From NCBI GenBank assembly GCA_001817495.1, contig MHIL01000026.1, positions 18,657 through 67,986 on the forward strand: DNA of 49,330 nt. The letters are read 5' to 3'. The notes beneath the pieces are model-generated. The model ran no database searches. It was not told where the DNA came from and worked only from the letters and a program-made list of their open reading frames with translations. Made by a program: the position numbers and the translations under genes. Shown here in pieces: positions 6,816-40,768 of this stretch (position 1 is its first letter; the number at the start of each line of letters is the position of its first letter). Source of the DNA: Candidatus Buchananbacteria bacterium RIFCSPHIGHO2_02_FULL_56_16. GTDB lineage: Bacteria; Patescibacteriota; Patescibacteriia; Buchananbacterales; UBA6539.

Positions 6816-7496
6816 ATGATTATCTTTAAAAACATCACCAAACTCTACCCGCCCAACACGACCGCGGTTAAAGGCATCAACCTCCACATCAAACCCAAGG
6901 AGTTTGTCTCGATCGTCGGCCGCAGCGGCACCGGCAAAACCACGCTGGTGAAGCTGCTGATTGCCGAAGAGAAGCCGACCGAGGGACGGATCATCGTCGG
7001 CGGCTGGGATATCACCGGCATTCGTTCAAACGAGATCCCGATCCTGCGCCGCCAGATCGGCGTGGTGTTTCAGGATTTTAAGCTCCTGACCAAGAAGACG
7101 GTATTCGAAAACATTGCTTTCGCGCTCCAGGTTTGCGGGGCTAAGCGGTCCCGTATCCAAGAGATCGTGCCCCAGGTGCTCAAGATCGTTAACCTATCGG
7201 GCAAGGAAAACCGCTACCCGCTCCAGCTCTCCGGCGGCGAGCAGCAACGGGTGGCGATCGCCCGGTCGCTCGTCCACCGGCCGAAGATCCTGATCGCCGA
7301 TGAACCAACCGGTAACCTCGATTCATTCAACACCCGCGAGATCATCGACCTCCTGCTCAAGATCAACGAGTTCGGCACCACCGTGCTTCTGGTCAGCCAC
7401 GACCGGGAGGTCGTCAACTACGTCAACAAACGAGTGATTGCCCTCGGCGACGGGCAGATCATCTCCGACCAAAAAATCGGTAAGTACATCATCTAA
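6816..7496 (+). CDS. ftsE: Cell division ATP-binding protein FtsE
   Basis: Walker A GRSGTGKTT, ABC signature LSGGEQQRV and Walker B ILIADEPT. Followed by ftsX. Confidence 0.9.
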   Translation: MIIFKNITKLYPPNTTAVKGINLHIKPKEFVSIVGRSGTGKTTLVKLLIAEEKPTEGRIIVGGWDITGIRSNEIPILRRQIGVVFQDFKLLTKKTVFENIAFALQVCGAKRSRIQEIVPQVLKIVNLSGKENRYPLQLSGGEQQRVAIARSLVHRPKILIADEPTGNLDSFNTREIIDLLLKINEFGTTVLLVSHDREVVNYVNKRVIALGDGQIISDQKIGKYII

Positions 7497-7500
7497 CCCC

Positions 7501-7626
7501 TATGCCCCGTAGTAGCCCCTCACCTTATGTAAGCAAGCATTACTACATGGAACGATGTAATCATGTATTATTAGTAACTACCCCTTACCTTGAAATAAGC
7601 AAGGTGAGGGATCACTACGGGGTATG
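7501..7626 (+). repeat. Start-codon-abutting structured element (SCE), copy A
   Basis: TATGCCCCGTAGTAGCCCCTCACCTT at the 5' end pairs with AAGGTGAGGGATCACTACGGGGTATG at the 3' end. The last ATG is the ftsX start codon. Confidence 0.8.
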
Positions 7627-13103: not shown

Positions 13104-13190
13104 ATGGCCGAAATCATCATCATCACCATGTTCGGCGCGGTGGCGCTCGCCGTCGCCATCTTCGCCTTGGCAGGTCTGAAGCGACCATAG
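13104..13190 (+). CDS. 28-aa hydrophobic peptide (MAEIIIITMFGAVALAVAIFALAGLKRP)
   Basis: Strong SD GAGGAGGA 8 nt upstream, its own promoter and an intrinsic terminator downstream. Not in the ORF track because it is shorter than 60 aa. Confidence 0.55.
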   Translation: MAEIIIITMFGAVALAVAIFALAGLKRP

Positions 13191-15535: not shown

Positions 15536-15784
15536 TTAACGAAGAGCCATGCGAAGAATTAAGGAGCCAATGACCAAGGCGCCGAATGCCAGCGTGCGGC
15601 GGAAGGTACGCCTCCTGGCCGCGAGTTCCGTTCTGCCTGGCCGGCCCAACTGCTGGCACTGATGGCACACTCCATCGCGATAATGGATACGGTACCATTC
15701 TGTTCCGCAATGGATGCAGGCCTCTTTCTCTTCCTCGCCCATCGCTACCATATTACGCCGAATCATGTCGGCAAGCTCACTCAC
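15536..15784 (-). CDS. Small zinc-ribbon protein with C-terminal TM helix
   Basis: GTG start preceded by AAGGAGGG (8 nt spacing). CxxC-X13-CxxC (CIHCG..CHQC) then LAFGALVIGSLIL. Confidence 0.55.
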   Translation of the reverse strand: MSELADMIRRNMVAMGEEEKEACIHCGTEWYRIHYRDGVCHQCQQLGRPGRTELAARRRTFRRTLAFGALVIGSLILRMALR

Positions 15785-16143: not shown

Positions 16144-16166
16144 TAGTTAAACCAAGGGTAAGGGTA

Positions 16167-16215
16167 GCCGAGAGCCTCTGCTCTCGGCGGCAGCGATTGG
16201 AGCAGAGGCTCCAAT
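16167..16215 (+). promoter_or_regulatory. Structured clpB 5'-UTR segment with mutually exclusive pairings
   Basis: Hairpins at 16167-16188 and 16196-16215. The 12-mer 16172-16183 (GAGCCTCTGCTC) is perfectly complementary to 16200-16211. Confidence 0.5.
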
Positions 16216-16324: not shown

Positions 16325-18934
16325 ATGAATCCCCAAAAACTAACCCTCAAAGCCCAAAACGCGCTCCAAGCCGCGCTTGAGCTGGCGGCCGAACGCAGCC
16401 AGCAGTATTTGACCGTCAGCCACCTCCTCGTGGCACTTATTGAGCAAGAGGACGGCGTCGTGCGGTCAGTCTTAAAGAAGCTTGAAGTTGACCTCGGCGC
16501 GCTCCAACGACAGCTCGACGCTGAACTGGCCAAGGTACCGCAGGTCAGCGGCGGCGGCCTGGCCCAGCAGCAAATTGACCAAACCTTTCAAAAGGTGCTG
16601 ATGCAGGCCGAGAAAGAAGCGAAGAAGCTCACCGACGAGTACATCAGCACCGAGCACCTGCTGCTCGCGATCGTTGAGGTAAAGTCGCCGGTAGCCGAGA
16701 TCCTCAAGCGGGCCGGCGTTGACTACGACGCGATCCTGACGATCCTGCGCGACATCCGGGGCACCCAGCGCATCACCGACCCCGACCCGGAGAGCAAGTA
16801 CCAGTCGCTATCAAAGTACGGCGTTGACCTCACCGAGCAGGCCCGGCAAGGCAAGCTCGACCCGATCGTCGGCCGCGACACCGAGATCCGGCGGGTGATG
16901 CAGGTACTGTCGCGCCGGACTAAGAACAACCCCGTCTTAATCGGCGAACCGGGCACCGGCAAAACCGCCATCGCCGAAGGCCTCGCCCGACGGATTACCT
17001 CTGGCGACGTACCTGAAAGTTTAAAAAATAAATCCATCATCAGCCTCGACATCGGCGCTTTGGTGGCCGGCACTAAGTTTCGGGGCGAGTTTGAAGACCG
17101 GCTCAAAGCGGTGCTCAAAGAAATCGAAGCAGCAGCCGGCTCGATTATCCTCTTTATCGACGAGCTGCATTTGGTCGTCGGCGCGGGCGGCGCGGAAGGG
17201 GCGGTTGACGCGGCTAACATCCTCAAACCGGCCCTGGCCCGCGGCACGCTCCACGCCATCGGCGCGACCACCCTGAAAGAGTACCAGAAGTACCTCGAGA
17301 AAGACGCCGCCCTCGAGCGTCGGTTCCAGCCGGTCTACGTCGGCGAGCCGGGTGTCGACGACACCATCGCGATCCTGCGCGGCATTAAAGAAAAGTACGA
17401 GGTCCACCACGGCGTCCGGATTACCGACAGCGCCCTGGTCGCCGCAGCCAAGCTTTCGGCCCGCTACATCACCGACCGCTTCCTGCCCGATAAGGCGATT
17501 GACCTGATTGACGAAGCGACCTCGGCCCTGCGGATGGAGATTGACTCGATGCCCGACGAGCTCGACAGCCTGAAACGAAAAATCACCCAGCTGGAGATTG
17601 AACGCGAAGCGCTGAAAAAAGAATCGGACGCCGCGGCCAAGAAACGGCTGCGCAACCTCGAGCGGCAGCTGGCCGACCTGCGCGAGCAGAGCAACCAGAT
17701 CGAGATCCACTGGCAGAACGAGAAAAAGCTCATCAACGAAATCCAGGCCTGCCAGCACCAGATCGAGCAGCTGAAGATGGAGGCTGATAGAGCGGAACGT
17801 GATGCCGAGCTGGAGAAGGTGGCGGAGATTAAGTACGGCCGGATTCCGGAGCTGGAGAAACGCAGCAAGGCGGCCGCTAAAAAGCTGGCCAATGTCCAGA
17901 AAGACAAGCGGATGCTCAAGGAAGAGGTGACCGAGCACGACATCGCCGCGGTCGTCTCGCGCTGGACCGGCATCCCGGTGACCAAGATGCTTGAGAGTGA
18001 AACCAAAAAGCTGGCGAACCTCGAAGACGAATTGCGCCGGCGCGTGGTCGGCCAGGACGAGGCGCTGCGGGCGATCGCCAACGCGGTGCGGCGCTCGCGG
18101 GCCGGCATCGCCGAGGCCAGCCGGCCGATCGGCTCCTTCATCTTTTTGGGCCCGACCGGCGTGGGTAAAACCGAAACCGCCAAGGCCCTGGCCGAATCAA
18201 TGTTCAGCGACGAGCGGGCGCTGGTGCGCGTTGATATGTCCGAGTACATGGAGAAACACAGCGTTTCCAAGATGATCGGCTAGCCGCCGGGCTACGTCGG
18301 CTTCGAAGAGGGCGGCCAGCTGACCGGAATCATCCGCCGCCGGCCCTACGCCATCGTCCTCTTTGACGAGATTGAGAAAGCCCACCCGGACGTCTTTAAC
18401 ATCCTGCTCCAGATCCTCGACGACGGCCGGCTGACCGACGCCAAGGGACGCGTCGTCAACTTCAAGAACACCGTCATCATCATGACCTCGAACCTGGGCG
18501 GGGATGTAATCAAGGAGTACACCATCGGCTTCACCGACCAGAAGCAGCGCGAAACCGTTGATGAAAAAGAAATGGAGAGCCGCATCACCGAAATTTTGCG
18601 GCGGACGTTCAAGCCGGAGTTTTTGAACCGGCTGGACGAGATTATCATTTTCCACGCCCTGGGGCCGGCCCAGATCGTCCAGATCGTCCTGCGTCAGCTC
18701 GAGCTGGTTACCGCCCGGCTCAAAGAGAAAGACATCAGCCTGACCTTCACCGACAAGCTCAAAACATTCCTGGCGACTAAAGGGTTTGACCCGGTCTACG
18801 GCGCCCGGCCGCTGCGGCGGCTGATCCAGCACCACGTGCTCGACGAGCTGGCGCTGCGCATCATCGAGGGCACCGTCAGCCCCGGCTCTCGGCTGACCGT
18901 CAACGTTTCGAACGGCAAGGTAGTCATTAGCTAG
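16325..18934 (+). pseudogene. clpB: ClpB disaggregase interrupted by a single in-frame TAG at 18281-18283
   Basis: MNPQKLTLKAQNALQ.. N-domain, two AAA+ modules ([18 protein letters not shown]), coiled-coil M domain. Reads ..[22 protein letters not shown].. in the same frame on both sides. Confidence 0.85.
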
Positions 18935-22754: not shown

Positions 22755-22761
22755 CCCACGA

Positions 22762-22900
22762 TATGCCCGGTAGTGATCCCTCACCTTATTGAGGATAGTG
22801 TAGGAGAAACTACTGCTTGGCAAACCCTCTAACAATAATTACCGTTTCCCTCAACCTTACTGTGTAAGACCAAAATGGTGAGGGACTACTACCGGGTATG
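22762..22900 (+). repeat. Start-codon-abutting structured element (SCE), copy C
   Basis: The 30-nt left end and 24-nt right end are identical to copy D. The last ATG is the infA start. Confidence 0.8.
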
Positions 22901-30724: not shown

Positions 30725-32149
30725 ATGGCTGAACGAACTCTAGTCAAAAACACGACCTACTTTACGGCAGCGTTGACGTTCCAAAAGATCCTGTCGTTTA
30801 TTTATTTCTGGTTCATTTCCAACAACCTGTTCGCCGAGAGCCTGGGCCAGTACGTCTTTGCTCTGTCGTTTACCACGCTGTTCTCAATCTTCATTGACCT
30901 GGGCCTCTCGCCAATCCTGACCCGCGAGGCGTCGAAGGACAACGCCGGGGCCAACCGGCTGCTGCGAAACGTCATCGGTCTCAAGCTGCCGCTCGCGGCT
31001 GCCACGCTGCTCGCCGCCTGGCTCTTCATCAACGTCACCGGCAAGCCGCCGGAGGTCAAATTACTCGTCTACCTGGCCAGCTTCGTGATGGTGCTCGACT
31101 CGTTCTCCTTGAGCTTTTGGGTGATGTTCCGGGCCCGGCACACGCTCACCTACGAGAGCATCGCTACCGTGCTGGTCCAGATGATCATCTTTACCTTGGG
31201 CATCATCGCGCTCAAGACCAGCGGCCAGATTCGGCATCTGATGCTCGCGCTCCTGGTCGCCAGCCTGTTTAACTTCGGCTTGAGCGCGCTGCTGCTCAAG
31301 CGTAAACTGCACTTCTCGCTCAAGCCCGAATGGAGTGCCGAGGTAATTGACGGCTTGCTGCGGGTCGTGCCGGCTTTCGCCCTGGCCGGCGTTTTTGTTA
31401 AAATTTACAATACCGTTGACTCGATCCTCCTGAGCTACCTGGTCGGCGACGCGGCGGTCGGCCTGTTCGCCATTCCCGCCAAGGTAGTCTACGCCTTTCA
31501 GCAGGTAATTCCGGCGGCTTTCGCCGCGGTAATCTTTCCGGCGTTTAGCACCTACTACAAACGGTCGCCGAGCCTGCTCTCCGGGACGTTTTTGAAAGCC
31601 TTCCGCTACCTCACCATCATCAGCCTGCCGCTCGCGGCCGGCCTGGTGGTGCTGGTGGGGCCGATTATCGAAACCCTCTGGCCCCGCTACGCGGCGGTGA
31701 TTCCAACCTTCATCGTGATGAGCCTGGCCATTCCGTTCATTTTTTTGGCGTTTCCCACCGGCTACCTCATGAACGCCTGCGACCGGCAGCGCCAGACCAC
31801 AACCAACCGCGGCATCATCACCGCCCTGGCCGTCATTCTCAACCTTAGCCTCATCCCGTCCCTAAGTTTCTACGGCGCGGGCATCGCGTTTTTGATTACG
31901 AATGTCGTCCTGCTCGGCCTCGACTTCATCTGGGTACGAAAGCTCATCCCGCTCAAGCTGGCCGCGCTGGGCAGCTTCGTAGGCAAGTCGGCGCTGGCAA
32001 CCGCGGTCATGGTGCTGCTGCTACTGGGCATCCGTCACCAGGTTCACGTCTTTGTCGCCGCACCGATCGGCGCGCTGGCCTACTTCGCGGTACTGGTCGG
32101 CATTCGGGGCTTTCGATTCTCCGAACTTACCGTAACTAAAGAGCGATGA
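30725..32149 (+). CDS. Polysaccharide flippase (MOP/Wzx family)
   Basis: 474 aa, about 12-14 TM segments, N-terminal ..KNTTYFTAALTFQKILSFIYFWFIS.. typical of polysaccharide biosynthesis proteins. Confidence 0.75.
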   Translation: MAERTLVKNTTYFTAALTFQKILSFIYFWFISNNLFAESLGQYVFALSFTTLFSIFIDLGLSPILTREASKDNAGANRLLRNVIGLKLPLAAATLLAAWLFINVTGKPPEVKLLVYLASFVMVLDSFSLSFWVMFRARHTLTYESIATVLVQMIIFTLGIIALKTSGQIRHLMLALLVASLFNFGLSALLLKRKLHFSLKPEWSAEVIDGLLRVVPAFALAGVFVKIYNTVDSILLSYLVGDAAVGLFAIPAKVVYAFQQVIPAAFAAVIFPAFSTYYKRSPSLLSGTFLKAFRYLTIISLPLAAGLVVLVGPIIETLWPRYAAVIPTFIVMSLAIPFIFLAFPTGYLMNACDRQRQTTTNRGIITALAVILNLSLIPSLSFYGAGIAFLITNVVLLGLDFIWVRKLIPLKLAALGSFVGKSALATAVMVLLLLGIRHQVHVFVAAPIGALAYFAVLVGIRGFRFSELTVTKER

Positions 32150-38549: not shown

Positions 38550-38699
38550 TCAGTGCCGTTCATGCACCGACGGGTCGGCGTCGAGCCGGCCGATGTCTTC
38601 TTCCAGCCGCTCGCACGCTTCAGGGTTCCCACCGAGCTGGGCTTCAATCAGCTGGTTCAAGTGAGCGCGCAACGCTTCGAGGTACATAAGGCGGTCCAT
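38550..38699 (-). CDS. Small protein (49 aa) upstream of def
   Basis: ATG 38699 preceded by AAGGAGA. MDRLMYLEALRAHLNQLIEAQLGGNPEACERLEEDIGRLDADPSVHERH. Confidence 0.4.
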   Translation of the reverse strand: MDRLMYLEALRAHLNQLIEAQLGGNPEACERLEEDIGRLDADPSVHERH

Positions 38700-38717
38700 T
38701 TTTGTTTTTGTCTCCTT

Positions 38718-38751
38718 AAAAAACCAAATATCTCCCAAGGGCGGGGAGATA
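38718..38751 (-). promoter_or_regulatory. Hairpin plus U-run in the leader of the small-ORF/def/fmt operon
   Basis: On the minus strand: TATCTCC-ccgcccttg-GGAGATA followed by TTTGGTTTTTT, directly before the SD. Confidence 0.4.
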
Positions 38752-38769: not shown

Positions 38770-38797
38770 ATTATAGCGCTTCAGACCGGCTTGTCAA
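38770..38797 (-). promoter_or_regulatory. Consensus-like sigma70 promoter (TTGACA-16-TATAAT) on the minus strand
   Basis: Reverse complements tgtcaa at 38792-38797 and attata at 38770-38775. Confidence 0.7.
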
Positions 38798-38804
38798 GGG
38801 CTGC

Positions 38805-38834
38805 TTGACGTTTCGCGGCGGCGGGGAGTAAGCT
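38805..38834 (+). promoter_or_regulatory. Divergent promoter (TTGACG-18-TAAGCT) of the small-ORF operon
   Basis: Hexamers at 38805-38810 and 38829-38834. Confidence 0.4.
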
Positions 38835-38865
38835 GCGTATACAAGAGCCAAAAAGGAGGGTACTG

Positions 38866-38919
38866 ATGGCCAGCATTACTGGATTACGGTCAAGATACTT
38901 GATGCTCTTTTACAACTAG
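38866..38919 (+). CDS. 17-aa ORF (MASITGLRSRYLMLFYN)
   Basis: Strong SD AAGGAGGG 5 nt upstream. Could be a leader peptide. Confidence 0.3.
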   Translation: MASITGLRSRYLMLFYN

Positions 38920-38957
38920 CCTGCGTTGGACCCATCGTCTAGGCAGTCATCTGCCGG

Positions 38958-39083
38958 ATGATTCCCTGGTGGTTCCTGCTCCTCGCGGGAACCGGCCTAA
39001 CCCTGCTCGCTTGGCGAGCAGTTCGAAATATGTCCCAGCGGATTTCCTATCGAGAGAGGAAAAACTGTAATGGCTCCACATAG
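38958..39083 (+). CDS. 41-aa single-TM ORF (MIPWWFLLLAGTGLTLLAWRAV..)
   Basis: Hydrophobic N-terminus. Overlaps the start of the next ORF by 14 nt. No clear SD. Confidence 0.3.
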   Translation: MIPWWFLLLAGTGLTLLAWRAVRNMSQRISYRERKNCNGST

Positions 39084-39363
39084 CGCTGTTCCAACCACCG
39101 AAGCCGAAGCATTGATTTACCACCGTCCCGAAAACAAACCAGAACCGCTTCCCTGGCTCCGTCGGTTCGAGTACCGGGCTCAGGTCGCCTCAGCCGTTCG
39201 CGAAATGCGAGACCGGCTGGGACTGAGCCAGTACGCGTTCGCCGGCGTGGTCGGCCTCAAGGTTGACGATATCGAGGCAATCGAAGACTTGGACTTCAAC
39301 GATGAGGCTCTCCCGGGTATTTTTGAGATGATCAAGACCATTGTTGATGAAGAGCCACAGTAG
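39070..39363 (+). CDS. Small XRE-like helix-turn-helix protein
   Basis: ..VREMRDRLGLSQYAFAGVVGLKVDDIEAIE.. resembles the XRE/Cro HTH. Confidence 0.5.
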   Translation: MAPHSAVPTTEAEALIYHRPENKPEPLPWLRRFEYRAQVASAVREMRDRLGLSQYAFAGVVGLKVDDIEAIEDLDFNDEALPGIFEMIKTIVDEEPQ

Positions 39364-39387
39364 TGCATCTGAGAAAGGGGTGAGCTA

Positions 39388-39534
39388 ATGTCACACGTCA
39401 AACAGGGGTTGCAGGTACTTCACGGCTGGATTGGACTGGCTGGTTTTCTGCTGGTTGCATCAGCCGGCTACGTACTATGCTGGGTGTTTTTCAGAAAAAG
39501 ACCGACTGACTGGGAGCATGAAGATCCGGATTAA
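39388..39534 (+). CDS. 48-aa single-TM protein
   Basis: MSHVKQGLQVLHGWIGLAGFLLVASAGYVLCWVFFRKRPTDWEHEDPD. AAAGGGGTGA lies upstream. Confidence 0.45.
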   Translation: MSHVKQGLQVLHGWIGLAGFLLVASAGYVLCWVFFRKRPTDWEHEDPD

Positions 39535-39561
39535 AACAGCTCAATGAGGGAGGAAACAAAC

Positions 39562-39762
39562 ATGGGCGTAAAGCTAAAGCTTGCCTTCGGAGTTACCTTG
39601 GGTGTACTCATATTGGTCGCAGCAAGCTGCTGCTTCCCCAAGCTGATGGTTCGGGTCGCCGTGGTGTATGGTGTTTTGTTTGTCATCATGGCGGTCTGGT
39701 TCGTCTGGGGACTGATTCGGACCGGTGTCCGAAAAAAGGAGGGAAAACAACCATGTGGCTGA
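39562..39762 (+). CDS. 66-aa two-TM protein ending ..GKQPCG (paralog 1)
   Basis: SD GGGAGGA 7 nt upstream. 10-nt overlap with the next ORF. Confidence 0.6.
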   Translation: MGVKLKLAFGVTLGVLILVAASCCFPKLMVRVAVVYGVLFVIMAVWFVWGLIRTGVRKKEGKQPCG

Positions 39763-39944
39763 GTATCGGAATTGTGATCGCGGGTGTCGCAAGGATATTT
39801 CTCACCATTGTTACGGTGTACTTTACCTTGGTACTCGGTCTCATCGTGTACTACGCGATAATGGTAGGAGTAATCTGGCTCTTTGCGAAGGTTTGTGAAG
39901 CGCTTGAAAAAATCTGCGAGCGGAGGAGACAGCCATGTGGATGA
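39753..39944 (+). CDS. 63-aa two-TM protein, MWLSIG.. to ..RRQPCG (paralog 2)
   Basis: SD AAGGAGGG 9 nt upstream. Same 10-nt overlap geometry at both ends. Confidence 0.6.
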   Translation: MWLSIGIVIAGVARIFLTIVTVYFTLVLGLIVYYAIMVGVIWLFAKVCEALEKICERRRQPCG

Positions 39945-40137
39945 GTATTGGCCTGATTAGCTTCATGGCAATTCCGTACCTCGTTTTCAACGTTTGGTTG
40001 GTATTGACAGACTACTACCTGTCAGTGAGAGAAAACCGGGTGAGACCATCGCTCAAAAGACGCTCCTTCTCATTATCGGCGGACTGCCGATTGTCCTTTA
40101 TTACGGCATTTGGAAAGCTGACACTAACGACGAGTGA
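39935..40137 (+). pseudogene. Third paralog (MWMSIG..), apparently frameshifted near 40030-40045
   Basis: SD GGAGGAG 6 nt upstream. The second TM helix (..TLLLIIGGLPIVLYYGIWKADTNDE*) is only readable in the -1 frame, ending TGA 40135-40137, 30 nt before the terminator. The track ORF instead reads through the terminator. Confidence 0.4.
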
Positions 40138-40170
40138 ACCTTACTTCGCAACAGCGTTGCTCCCAAGCGG

Positions 40171-40197
40171 GCAGCTCCCATCGAGCTGCTTTTTTTC
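40171..40197 (+). terminator. Intrinsic terminator of the small-ORF operon
   Basis: GCAGCTC-ccatc-GAGCTGC followed by TTTTTTT. Confidence 0.75.
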
Positions 40198-40224
40198 TTG
40201 TCTCCATCTGCTATACTAACGTTG

Positions 40225-40394
40225 TATGCCCGGTAGTGATCCCTCACCTTATTGGATGAGACCAGAAGAAAATACTACTGGGCAGACTCTTTAATGATAA
40301 ATTACTAAATCACGTCGTTACGCGAACGACGTGATAAACTCCCTTCACCTCGCTGTTTAATGTTAAACCAGGTGAGGGACTACTACCGGGTATG
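40225..40394 (+). repeat. Start-codon-abutting structured element (SCE), copy D
   Basis: Ends identical to copy C. Extended -10 TGcTATACT (40209-40217) ends 8 nt before the first ATG. The last ATG is the start of ORF 40392. Confidence 0.8.
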
Positions 40395-40679
40395 CTCAGA
40401 ATCGACCAACCTGAATCAATGCGGGCCCTGTTGGGCAAGCGATCAACCGTCAAGCCGCCGGCTTACGATTGGCAGGACCTGGCGCTGCGGATCATTGATG
40501 AGCTTGGTATTCCGCCAAAAAAGCGCAACGCGGTGTTTCGGGTCTGCAAGCAGCATCCCAAGCGAGTGATTGAGAAAGCATTGAACGATACCAAGGAGCT
40601 GGTCAAGGTGGGGGAGCGCTGGCGGTACTTTTTCAAGGTTATTGAGAACAAAGAGCGGCCGCTTGAAACAAAAAAATGA
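40392..40679 (+). CDS. Hypothetical protein (95 aa)
   Basis: ORF begins at the terminal ATG of SCE copy D. No family recognised. Confidence 0.5.
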   Translation: MLRIDQPESMRALLGKRSTVKPPAYDWQDLALRIIDELGIPPKKRNAVFRVCKQHPKRVIEKALNDTKELVKVGERWRYFFKVIENKERPLETKK

Positions 40680-40717: not shown

Positions 40718-40768
40718 GAACCCTGAAGGCGAGGATATATATCCTCGCCTTCAGGGTTCAATTTTCTT
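40718..40768. terminator. Perfect 21-bp palindrome between convergent genes
   Basis: GAACCCTGAAGGCGAGGATAT/ATATCCTCGCCTTCAGGGTTC followed by caATTTTCTT on the + strand. Confidence 0.65.

Follow-up and report, generated by a model that had tools for sequence, protein, structure and literature searches.

What does a gene for a small DNA-binding protein do in the midst of a row of tiny membrane-protein genes, and are the two linked in function? The question is raised by contig MHIL01000026.1 of Candidatus Buchananbacteria bacterium RIFCSPHIGHO2_02_FULL_56_16, of which we analysed one stretch of 49,330 nucleotides (positions 18,657 to 67,986; hereafter the window, in whose coordinates positions are given unless another locus is named). 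Between the divergent def-fmt operon and a conserved Parcubacteria gene at 40392-40679 (the neighbour gene), the plus strand carries a transcription unit, 38866-40137, that comprises a gene for an XRE-type helix-turn-helix (HTH) protein and five or six tiny membrane-protein genes. The reading we favour, to which we give somewhat less than an even chance, is that this cassette is an autoregulated accessory operon in a hotspot, where a Cro-like repressor was recruited and coupled to small membrane proteins, and that its role is dispensable and strain-specific.

A first-pass annotation of the window had described an operon of seven open reading frames (ORFs) driven by Shine-Dalgarno (SD) sites. 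The operon, most of the ORFs and the SD sites stand; the third ORF with two transmembrane (TM) helices is broken, and the 17-aa ORF at the start is not conserved. The proposed ORFs of 41 aa (o41, one TM helix), 97 aa (the HTH protein), 48 aa (o48, one TM helix), and 66 and 63 aa (P4 and P5, two TM helices each) were all found, and the broken gene, P6, comes last. The HTH gene overlaps o41 by 14 nt, and start and stop codons overlap at the P4/P5 and P5/P6 junctions.

These genes are real and constrained. In lineage A (L002 and L086), the cassette consists of the HTH gene and genes for a 42-aa TM protein, P4, and P6; in lineage B (L003), it consists of an o41-like ORF, a second HTH paralogue, the HTH gene, and genes for a 42-aa TM protein, P4, and P6. 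After the cassette come, in A as in B, the same terminator and right-hand neighbours. The HTH gene and four small ORFs are kept in the two lineages at 22-30% nucleotide divergence (alignable parts), and the pairwise ratio of nonsynonymous to synonymous divergence (dN/dS) is 0.17-0.49 for o41, HTH, o48, P4, and P6; these are therefore protein-coding genes, kept under purifying selection in three diverged relatives. By gene, dN/dS is 0.40 for o41 (55% identity to its L003 homologue, phmmer E 9e-12), 0.26-0.37 for the HTH gene, 0.17-0.34 for o48 (42-aa homologues in L002 and L003, phmmer E 6e-7), and 0.24-0.38 for P4 (48-55% identity to homologues in L003, L002, and L086). P5 is not present in the L003 or L086 lineages. 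The cassette genes evolve several times faster than their flank, with a dN of 0.2-0.7 against 0.08-0.09 for the neighbour gene at comparable dS.

Relatives are few. The HTH protein has three homologues among 5.8e9 proteins, all on short groundwater contigs, and none in GTDB genomes; the P4 profile has three matches among the 5.8e9 proteins and two among 1.84e9 representatives (full HMMER). In GTDB, Def and GluRS find their best matches at only 45-47% identity, mostly in Patescibacteria genomes; the sample names indicate an aquifer metagenome. Two Joint Genome Institute matches (L004 and L005) were discarded as HTH relatives because they are unrelated YiaG/MqsA-like HTH proteins, and L091, considered as a different genomic context, turned out to be the same locus with small assembly differences. 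The membrane ORFs had been said to resemble no recognised family, and their matches in Pfam, PHROGs, NCBIfam, and PADLOC are indeed noise. The gene finder missed some of the mini ORFs of the window's lineage and, in the related locus L119, all of them.

The identification of the 97-aa protein as XRE-like is supported at the level of the modelled fold. Residues ~36-76 align to the XRE HTH core in Pfam, PHROGs, PADLOC, NCBIfam, and a PDB profile search, in which the match to the 434 repressor spans residues 40-76. An AlphaFold2 (AF2) model made with four sequences has a predicted local distance difference test score of 76.7, with block means of 86-92 over residues 31-70. In a Foldseek search with this model, the matches included the restriction-modification (R-M) controllers C.BclI, C.AhdI, and C.Esp1396I, HipB, and SinR (all at probability 1.0), together with NHTF and YmfM (root-mean-square deviation of the matches 1.5-2.2 Å, ~60 residues). 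Model and structural matches thus point to a helical-bundle HTH fold, and the weak sequence matches agree. Assignment to any specific subfamily is not supported; the Pfam scores lie below threshold (HTH_31, 14.9 bits against a cut-off of 27; HTH_25, 14.2 against 24.6), and the NCBIfam matches are all far under their cut-offs.

With the R-M controller (C) proteins and HipB, the window protein shares its helical-bundle fold, the HTH being at residues ~54-72. Like them it is small, heads its own operon, and adjoins divergent promoters with an inverted repeat. In contrast to them, it scores below all curated thresholds, carries a 35-residue N-terminal extension that is conserved within the lineage only, has no restriction-modification or HipA-type genes nearby, and is co-encoded with membrane mini proteins.

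Evidence for a link between the HTH protein and the membrane proteins comes from contig L117, where the neighbour gene shares 81% identity with the window's. The first gene in its gap between def and the neighbour gene encodes a protein of 178 aa, of which the first 90 residues have the window HTH protein as a homologue (40% identity, E 9e-17). A two-TM domain makes up its C-terminal half; the CYWFP turn there weakly resembles that of P4. This is the only case in which we met HTH and TM parts in one polypeptide; in the window they are separate genes. The fusion of proteins that are separate elsewhere is classical evidence of joint working, and the L117 fusion leads us to propose that the HTH protein acts in contact with the membrane proteins.

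The upstream region offers a candidate binding site. The promoter region of L117 retains the back-to-back -35 boxes, the -10 block, and a AAAGGAGG box. In the window, the two -35 boxes form the inverted repeat GTCAAG-N5-CTTGAC; in L117, a relative that bears the HTH, it reads TTGTCAAG-TGCTGG-CTTGAC. Judged from its letters, this repeat is a candidate operator of the HTH protein.

Two kinds of known systems resemble the proposed coupling. L117, with an HTH and a two-TM domain in one polypeptide, recalls the membrane-anchored XRE-type proteins RodZ and YmfM, and YmfM is among the structural matches of the window HTH model. However, the window HTH protein is a separate soluble protein without the C-terminal domain of RodZ, and its match to the RodZ model is noise (14 versus 208 bits). 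In the LytTR systems HdrRM and BrsRM, regulators are held in check by co-transcribed membrane proteins. The cassette would likewise pair a DNA-binding protein with co-transcribed membrane partners, the contact between them being a proposal in the window; the LytTR DNA-binding family is unlike the window HTH.

The location of the cassette is as informative as its content. The neighbour gene had been called an orphan; the search gave over 262 homologues with 55-95% identity, from Buchananbacteria, Falkowbacteria, Moranbacteria, and other Parcubacteria, and the gene almost always stands beside def and a LigB/Memo-like gene. The invariant residues of its protein include KPPA..WQ.LAL and NDTKEL...W.YFFK, and the AF2 model has five helices, a fold without a match in the PDB. 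We surveyed 80 genome loci around the neighbour gene, together with two metagenome contigs. def and the neighbour gene are divergent in 50 GTDB loci, and the gap between them is at most 136 nt in 28 of these. All 11 loci closest to the window (LigB identity at least 57%) have a gap of 360-1554 nt, which SD-led (AGGAG/GGAGG) mini ORFs with one or two TM helices fill in nine of the 11. The sets of mini ORFs differ by lineage and usually come with no HTH gene (L119, L136, L141, L152, L153, and L137). The P6 family is always the last cassette gene in relatives; its members come from the window, lineages A and B, L136_59, L152_69, L153_64, and L119, and share an (S/T)LK motif before the second TM helix. 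The gap is an accessory-gene hotspot, and mini membrane genes are its usual content in the window's clade, the only clade in which we saw it filled in this way.

In distant Parcubacteria the same gap holds other cargo (L156 760-2578, L158 1585-3467, L175 2796-3380, L190 2754-3356, L135 2965-3462, and L155 2267-3394). This includes a multi-TM protein of 132-135 aa with a long protein of ~40-aa tandem repeats (EPLRxEAWxKLL), as well as a ~200-aa family (MPK...), a pilin-like protein of 165 aa, and a membrane protein of 375 aa.

Taken together, the mechanism we propose is as follows. The cargo of the operon is the small integral membrane proteins o41, o48, P4, P5, and P6, translated from SD sites; equivalent mini membrane genes occupy the same site in sister lineages, with P6 as the recurrent last gene. 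The Cro/C1 (XRE)-type regulator was added in the window's sub-lineage. By binding the inverted repeat it would autoregulate the operon, perhaps with an effect on the divergent promoter as well. It would also touch the membrane proteins encoded alongside it, and the output of the operon would thereby be tied to their membrane state; the acidic tail of o48 and the basic tails of o41 and P4 are candidate points of contact. The membrane proteins are fast-evolving, duplicated, recombined, fused, and frameshifted, and occur in a narrow lineage only; we take this to suggest a function at the envelope that is dispensable and strain-specific (for example exclusion, immunity, or partner interaction), not a housekeeping one. 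The features on which this reading draws are collected in Table 1.

Table 1. Features of the cassette and its upstream region, in window coordinates
Feature	Position	Strand	Basis or remark
Consensus sigma-70-type promoter, TTGACA-16-TATAAT	38770..38797	-	12/12 positions match
Inverted repeat GTCAAG-N5-CTTGAC, from back-to-back -35 boxes	38792..38811		Read from sequence
Putative operon promoter, TTGACG-18-TAAGCT	38806..38835	+	-10 box matches 3/6; not called by scan
17-aa ORF behind AAGGAGG	38866..38919	+	ORF and SD seen in sequence
o41, 41-aa single-TM protein, basic C-terminal tail	38958..39083	+	Hydropathy: one TM helix
97-aa Cro/C1 (XRE)-type HTH protein, presumed operon repressor	39070..39363	+	Weak sequence matches, AF2, Foldseek
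o48, 48-aa single-TM protein, acidic tail (D/G)WE(D/H)ED(P)D conserved	39388..39534	+	Homologues
P4, 66-aa two-TM hairpin, (C/Y)(C/Y)FP(K/E) turn, basic tail	39562..39762	+	Homologues, hydropathy
P5, 63-aa two-TM protein	39753..39944	+	ATG overlaps P4 stop
P6, two-TM gene, -1 frame break at 40055-40058	39935..40137	+	ORF list, intact homologues
Intrinsic terminator of the operon	40169-40198 (hairpin 40169-40191 and U run)	+	Predicted

Several observations weigh against the favoured reading. Every sequence match of the HTH protein falls below the curated family threshold. The fusion in L117 is known from one Logan contig, and its TM domain matches P4 weakly (E 0.001-0.01 in a small comparison set, with a low hhalign probability). 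Most relatives hold membrane genes without an HTH gene, and the coupling is thus not general. The candidate operator may be merely two divergent -35 boxes. A promoter and a clean terminator had been said to bracket the cassette; of these, the plus-strand promoter is weak, with a -10 box that matches at three of six positions, and the promoter scan missed it. The sole RNA runs from these samples (SOLiD sets of 2-3 Mb) contained no transcripts of the cassette. Finally, P6 is broken in the window's lineage, and o41 has no SD and has its AUG inside a predicted hairpin, which suggests that part of the operon may be decaying.

The terminator, in contrast to the promoter, bears out what had been claimed for it. 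It has a folding energy of -18.4 kcal/mol (z -2.5), is 92-93% conserved in L003 and L086, and is also kept in L117. The only consensus promoter of the intergenic region lies on the minus strand; it diverges from the operon, faces a 49/62-aa gene followed by def and fmt, and is present in L117 too. The -10 block of the putative operon promoter, GAGTArGCTG, is common to the window and L117. The leader folds no better than shuffled sequences, and an Rfam scan returned a chance miRNA match only.

The 49/62-aa gene (38550-38751, minus strand) encodes a helical protein, lies between the cassette and def, and is missing from L117. Its own leader has a hairpin and U run (38729-38751) directly after the consensus promoter, and AAGGAGA precedes the inner ATG.

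The cassette had been described as using translation signals unlike those of the surrounding core genes, and the starts confirm this. SD-like motifs precede six of the seven ORFs (AAGGAGG, GAGAGGA, GAAAGGGG, GGGAGGA, AAGGAGGG, and GCGGAGGAG); they are of GGAG type and stand 6-10 nt from the start, o41 alone being without one. In contrast, a scan of the entire window showed no such motif ahead of any core gene, and none of the 28 core-gene starts inspected has an SD. In several of these starts a TATAxT box stands 7-10 nt ahead of the ATG, a layout that suggests leaderless mRNAs. Examples of starts with a TATAxT-type box or no SD are 38528 (-), 43013 (-), 46459 (+), and 29891 (+), and the operon-internal core genes at 32146 and 33313 likewise have no SD. 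A published survey could detect the anti-SD motif in no more than 48% of Parcubacteria genomes (PMC9297842), a figure that makes the conserved SD boxes of the mini genes noteworthy.

The lower GC content reported for the segment was found as well, at 51.4% against 55.2% for the whole window. GC at third codon positions (GC3) is also low in the cassette (0.60 versus 0.74 for 19 core genes), and the low GC is therefore not solely an effect of codons for hydrophobic residues.

SD-led small ORFs occur elsewhere in the window. One at 13104-13190 (+) encodes a 28-aa single-TM peptide (MAEIIIITMFGAVALAVAIFALAGLKRP) and is followed by a terminator-like hairpin. Others start at 15784 (-), 15981 (-), 19184 (-), and 27897 (+); two of these are 60-82 aa long, one encodes a very acidic protein of 46 aa, and one encodes 66 aa with a hydrophobic segment. 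From these starts, SD use in the window seems to mark small accessory ORFs.

The 17-aa ORF behind its perfect SD is present as described; its status as a gene did not hold. One strain variant carries a mutated SD and, in the ORF, a frame-shifting insertion of one base; a second carries ~10 substitutions and an indel. In L117, ATA replaces ATG, and the block TCTTTTACAACT (38906-38917) is kept but in a different reading frame. The ORF is probably a leader feature and not a conserved protein; what the sequences compared have kept of the operon leader is its nucleotides, not an encoded peptide.

The two-TM genes had been taken for three tandem paralogs. P4 and P6 are instead separate families, each with its own orthologues, and P5 reads as a chimera specific to its lineage, P6-like at the N-terminus and P4-like in the C-terminal tail. 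P5 is like P6 over its first 34 residues only (35% identity, BLASTP), and like P4 over its last eight only. At the DNA level, the repeat among these genes is limited to a 23-nt junction with a spacing of 182 nt. On these alignments the chimera is best explained by a tandem duplication across the P4/P6 junction. P4 was considered as a lipoprotein and rejected as such; the AAS-C lipobox is found in the window only, and homologues carry SSYY or SGYC.

P6 had been listed as an ORF of ~65 aa; it is broken by a -1 frameshift. Its first frame (39935-40219) encodes 94 aa and reads through the terminator, and the -1 frame holds the second TM helix and the proper stop (40137). Alignment with the intact homologues of 58-61 aa in L086 and L003 places the break at CTC AAA AGA (40052-40060). 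After correction by one base, the protein reads ...VRPSLK-KTLLLIIGGLPIVLYYGIWKADTNDE and aligns without gaps to the L003 homologue. The break is identical in independently assembled contigs from six groundwater and sediment runs, and is therefore real in this population. We rejected a programmed -1 frameshift, since C_AAA_AGA is not a canonical slippery heptamer (X_XXY_YYZ); no stimulatory structure was found 3' of the break (the fold of 40040-40140 has a z of -0.2 against shuffles). A +1 slip, also considered, yields a non-TM tail. The last mini gene of L119 (3025-3209 of that locus) has a -1 break in the loop as well, at CTA AAA AAT TTG. This site is homologous to the break in the window, and in L119 it does lie on an A_AAA_AAU heptamer; with the frame corrected, the L119 product matches the intact homologue in L136 (phmmer E 6e-7). 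Two independent -1 breaks have thus occurred at a homologous A-run.

Among the rival explanations, the one that we rate highest, although we regard it as improbable, makes the cassette the remnant of a prophage or mobile element: either an immunity region, with a CI/Cro-like repressor and exclusion proteins, or a holin cassette that has lost its lysin. An XRE-type HTH beside small, fast-evolving proteins with one or two TM helices is what such regions look like, and the lower GC3 and the translation signals unlike those of core genes would fit an import. By hydropathy, P4 and P5 have the size, N-in/C-in hairpin topology, and charged tails of class II holins; two TM helices with a charged C-terminal tail are not, however, holin-specific. 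A scaffold of another strain, L001, diverges from the window by ~10% across def and the 49/62-aa gene (as far as 38686), and at only 3/812 positions (~0.4%) from 38687 into the cassette, as it might after a recent exchange. This sharp mosaic boundary could equally come from an assembly chimera; either origin would produce it.

The surroundings argue otherwise. There is no integrase, attachment site, lysin, or other phage gene on either side, and no endolysin, spanin, phage context, or Pfam or PHROGs holin match beside the cassette. No recombinase lies nearby, the nearest tRNAs are 30 kb away, no flanking direct repeats were found beyond a 16-nt T-rich match, and no contigs skip the cassette. 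Neither the HTH protein nor P4 has relatives among 2.9 million viral contigs, and neither PHROGs nor PADLOC gave anything significant. Two conditions that the first-pass annotation had set for its own refutation thus came out in its favour: relatives conserve the ORFs under purifying selection, and none of the ORFs matches a phage or immunity family. The cassette holds a fixed chromosomal position across a clade where the site is occupied although core proteins are only 50-65% identical, which points to long vertical residence, and the membrane genes there occur without an HTH gene. For the analogies to holin/antiholin, immunity or exclusion, and membrane-toxin modules drawn in the first-pass annotation, we found no positive evidence.

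The last of these analogies leads to the rival that we rank next and likewise judge improbable, a toxin-antitoxin-like addiction or stress module in which the small membrane proteins would be depolarising toxins and the HTH protein the antitoxin, the autorepressor, or both. Hok, TisB, and GhoT, of type I and V toxin-antitoxin systems, are small membrane-depolarising toxins, and the cassette proteins match these in size (40-70 aa) and in having one or two TM helices. The best NCBIfam matches of the HTH protein are antitoxin models (Y4mF/HipB, E 4e-4, and MqsA), HipB is among the top structural matches, and occasional inactivation by frameshift, as in P6, is typical of toxin genes. However, the antitoxin matches are far under their cut-offs (20 versus 72 bits) and cover the generic HTH only. 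No cognate toxin of a known family (HipB/HigA/MqsA type) lies beside the HTH gene, its neighbours being unmatched TM mini proteins. Unlike the Hok, TisB, and GhoT systems, the cassette proteins have no sequence match to known toxins and no evident antisense RNA or RNase partner (Rfam is empty), and several genes follow one another, translationally coupled. Toxin-antitoxin modules are not built with five or six membrane genes to one regulator, and the fusion of the HTH to a membrane domain in L117 is unlike the build of an antitoxin. HTH and TM genes do not strictly co-occur in relatives: sister lineages keep membrane genes at the same site without an HTH or other soluble partner, which argues against regulator-antidote pairing being essential.

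Least probable of the three is that these are weakly constrained newborn or decaying ORFs in a permissive gap, the HTH protein being an unremarkable local regulator without a particular connection to them. Very high turnover with gene sets that differ per lineage, the chimeric P5, the frameshifted P6, the unconserved 17-aa ORF, the low GC3, and the lack of homologues outside the lineage speak for it. Against it, dN/dS is clearly below 1 for every comparable ORF, and the lineages retain the ORFs together with their SD sites and overlapping junctions. P6-family genes also stay in last place throughout a clade whose core proteins are ~40% divergent, and the L117 fusion argues for a functional link. 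The remaining probability falls to explanations outside those listed.

Two repeated elements lie to the right of the cassette. One resembles a miniature inverted-repeat transposable element (MITE); it is ~130-165 nt long, has 20-nt terminal inverted repeats (CCCGGTAGTGATCCCTCACC), and is flanked by TATG. Copies are found at 40224-40389, 22761-22895, and about 7490-7621, and all three end at ...GGGTATG, so that at 40392 and 7624 the downstream gene starts with the duplicated ATG. Over this element the contig depth is 5-8x higher. An empty-site contig in two runs skips 166 nt with a 6-nt overlap, GTATGC, and the insertion is therefore polymorphic. It parts the neighbour gene from a site that is a leaderless-type promoter in relatives. 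The other element is a perfect 42-nt palindrome with a 19-bp stem (40718-40759), between the neighbour gene and the LigB-like gene. Its contig depth is 4-6x that of the flanks, a 30-nt relative lies at 16161-16190, and it may be a repeated terminator of the repetitive extragenic palindromic (REP) kind.

An accessory operon with a membrane-coupled repressor, as we favour it, joins a small HTH regulator to small membrane proteins, and this general arrangement is known. What is new, as far as homology searches tell, is the protein families: all relatives of the TM ORFs belong to a narrow lineage. What is unusual is the fixed hotspot, the use of SD sites in a genome otherwise without them, and the HTH-TM fusion. 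A bolder proposal, for which we see a slender chance, is that the gap is a contingency locus, in which hypervariable, SD-translated mini membrane proteins at a fixed position set strain-specific envelope behaviour, P6 is switched on and off by slippage in its A-run, and the repressor serves some lineages as a feedback sensor. If true, exclusion of phages or of competing episymbionts, or specificity for a host partner, would be examples of such behaviour; the slippage in P6 would concern a single base, in an A-run that encodes a conserved loop lysine; and an SD-translated set would exist in genomes that otherwise initiate without SD, with a membrane-coupled, Cro-like repressor added to it.

Bacteria of the Candidate Phyla Radiation have tiny genomes in which most lineage-specific genes are unannotated. 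As it stands, the cassette is a well-documented gene cluster and a small testable system for the role of fast-evolving small membrane proteins in episymbiotic bacteria, and it bears on the coexistence of SD-dependent and SD-independent initiation in Parcubacteria.

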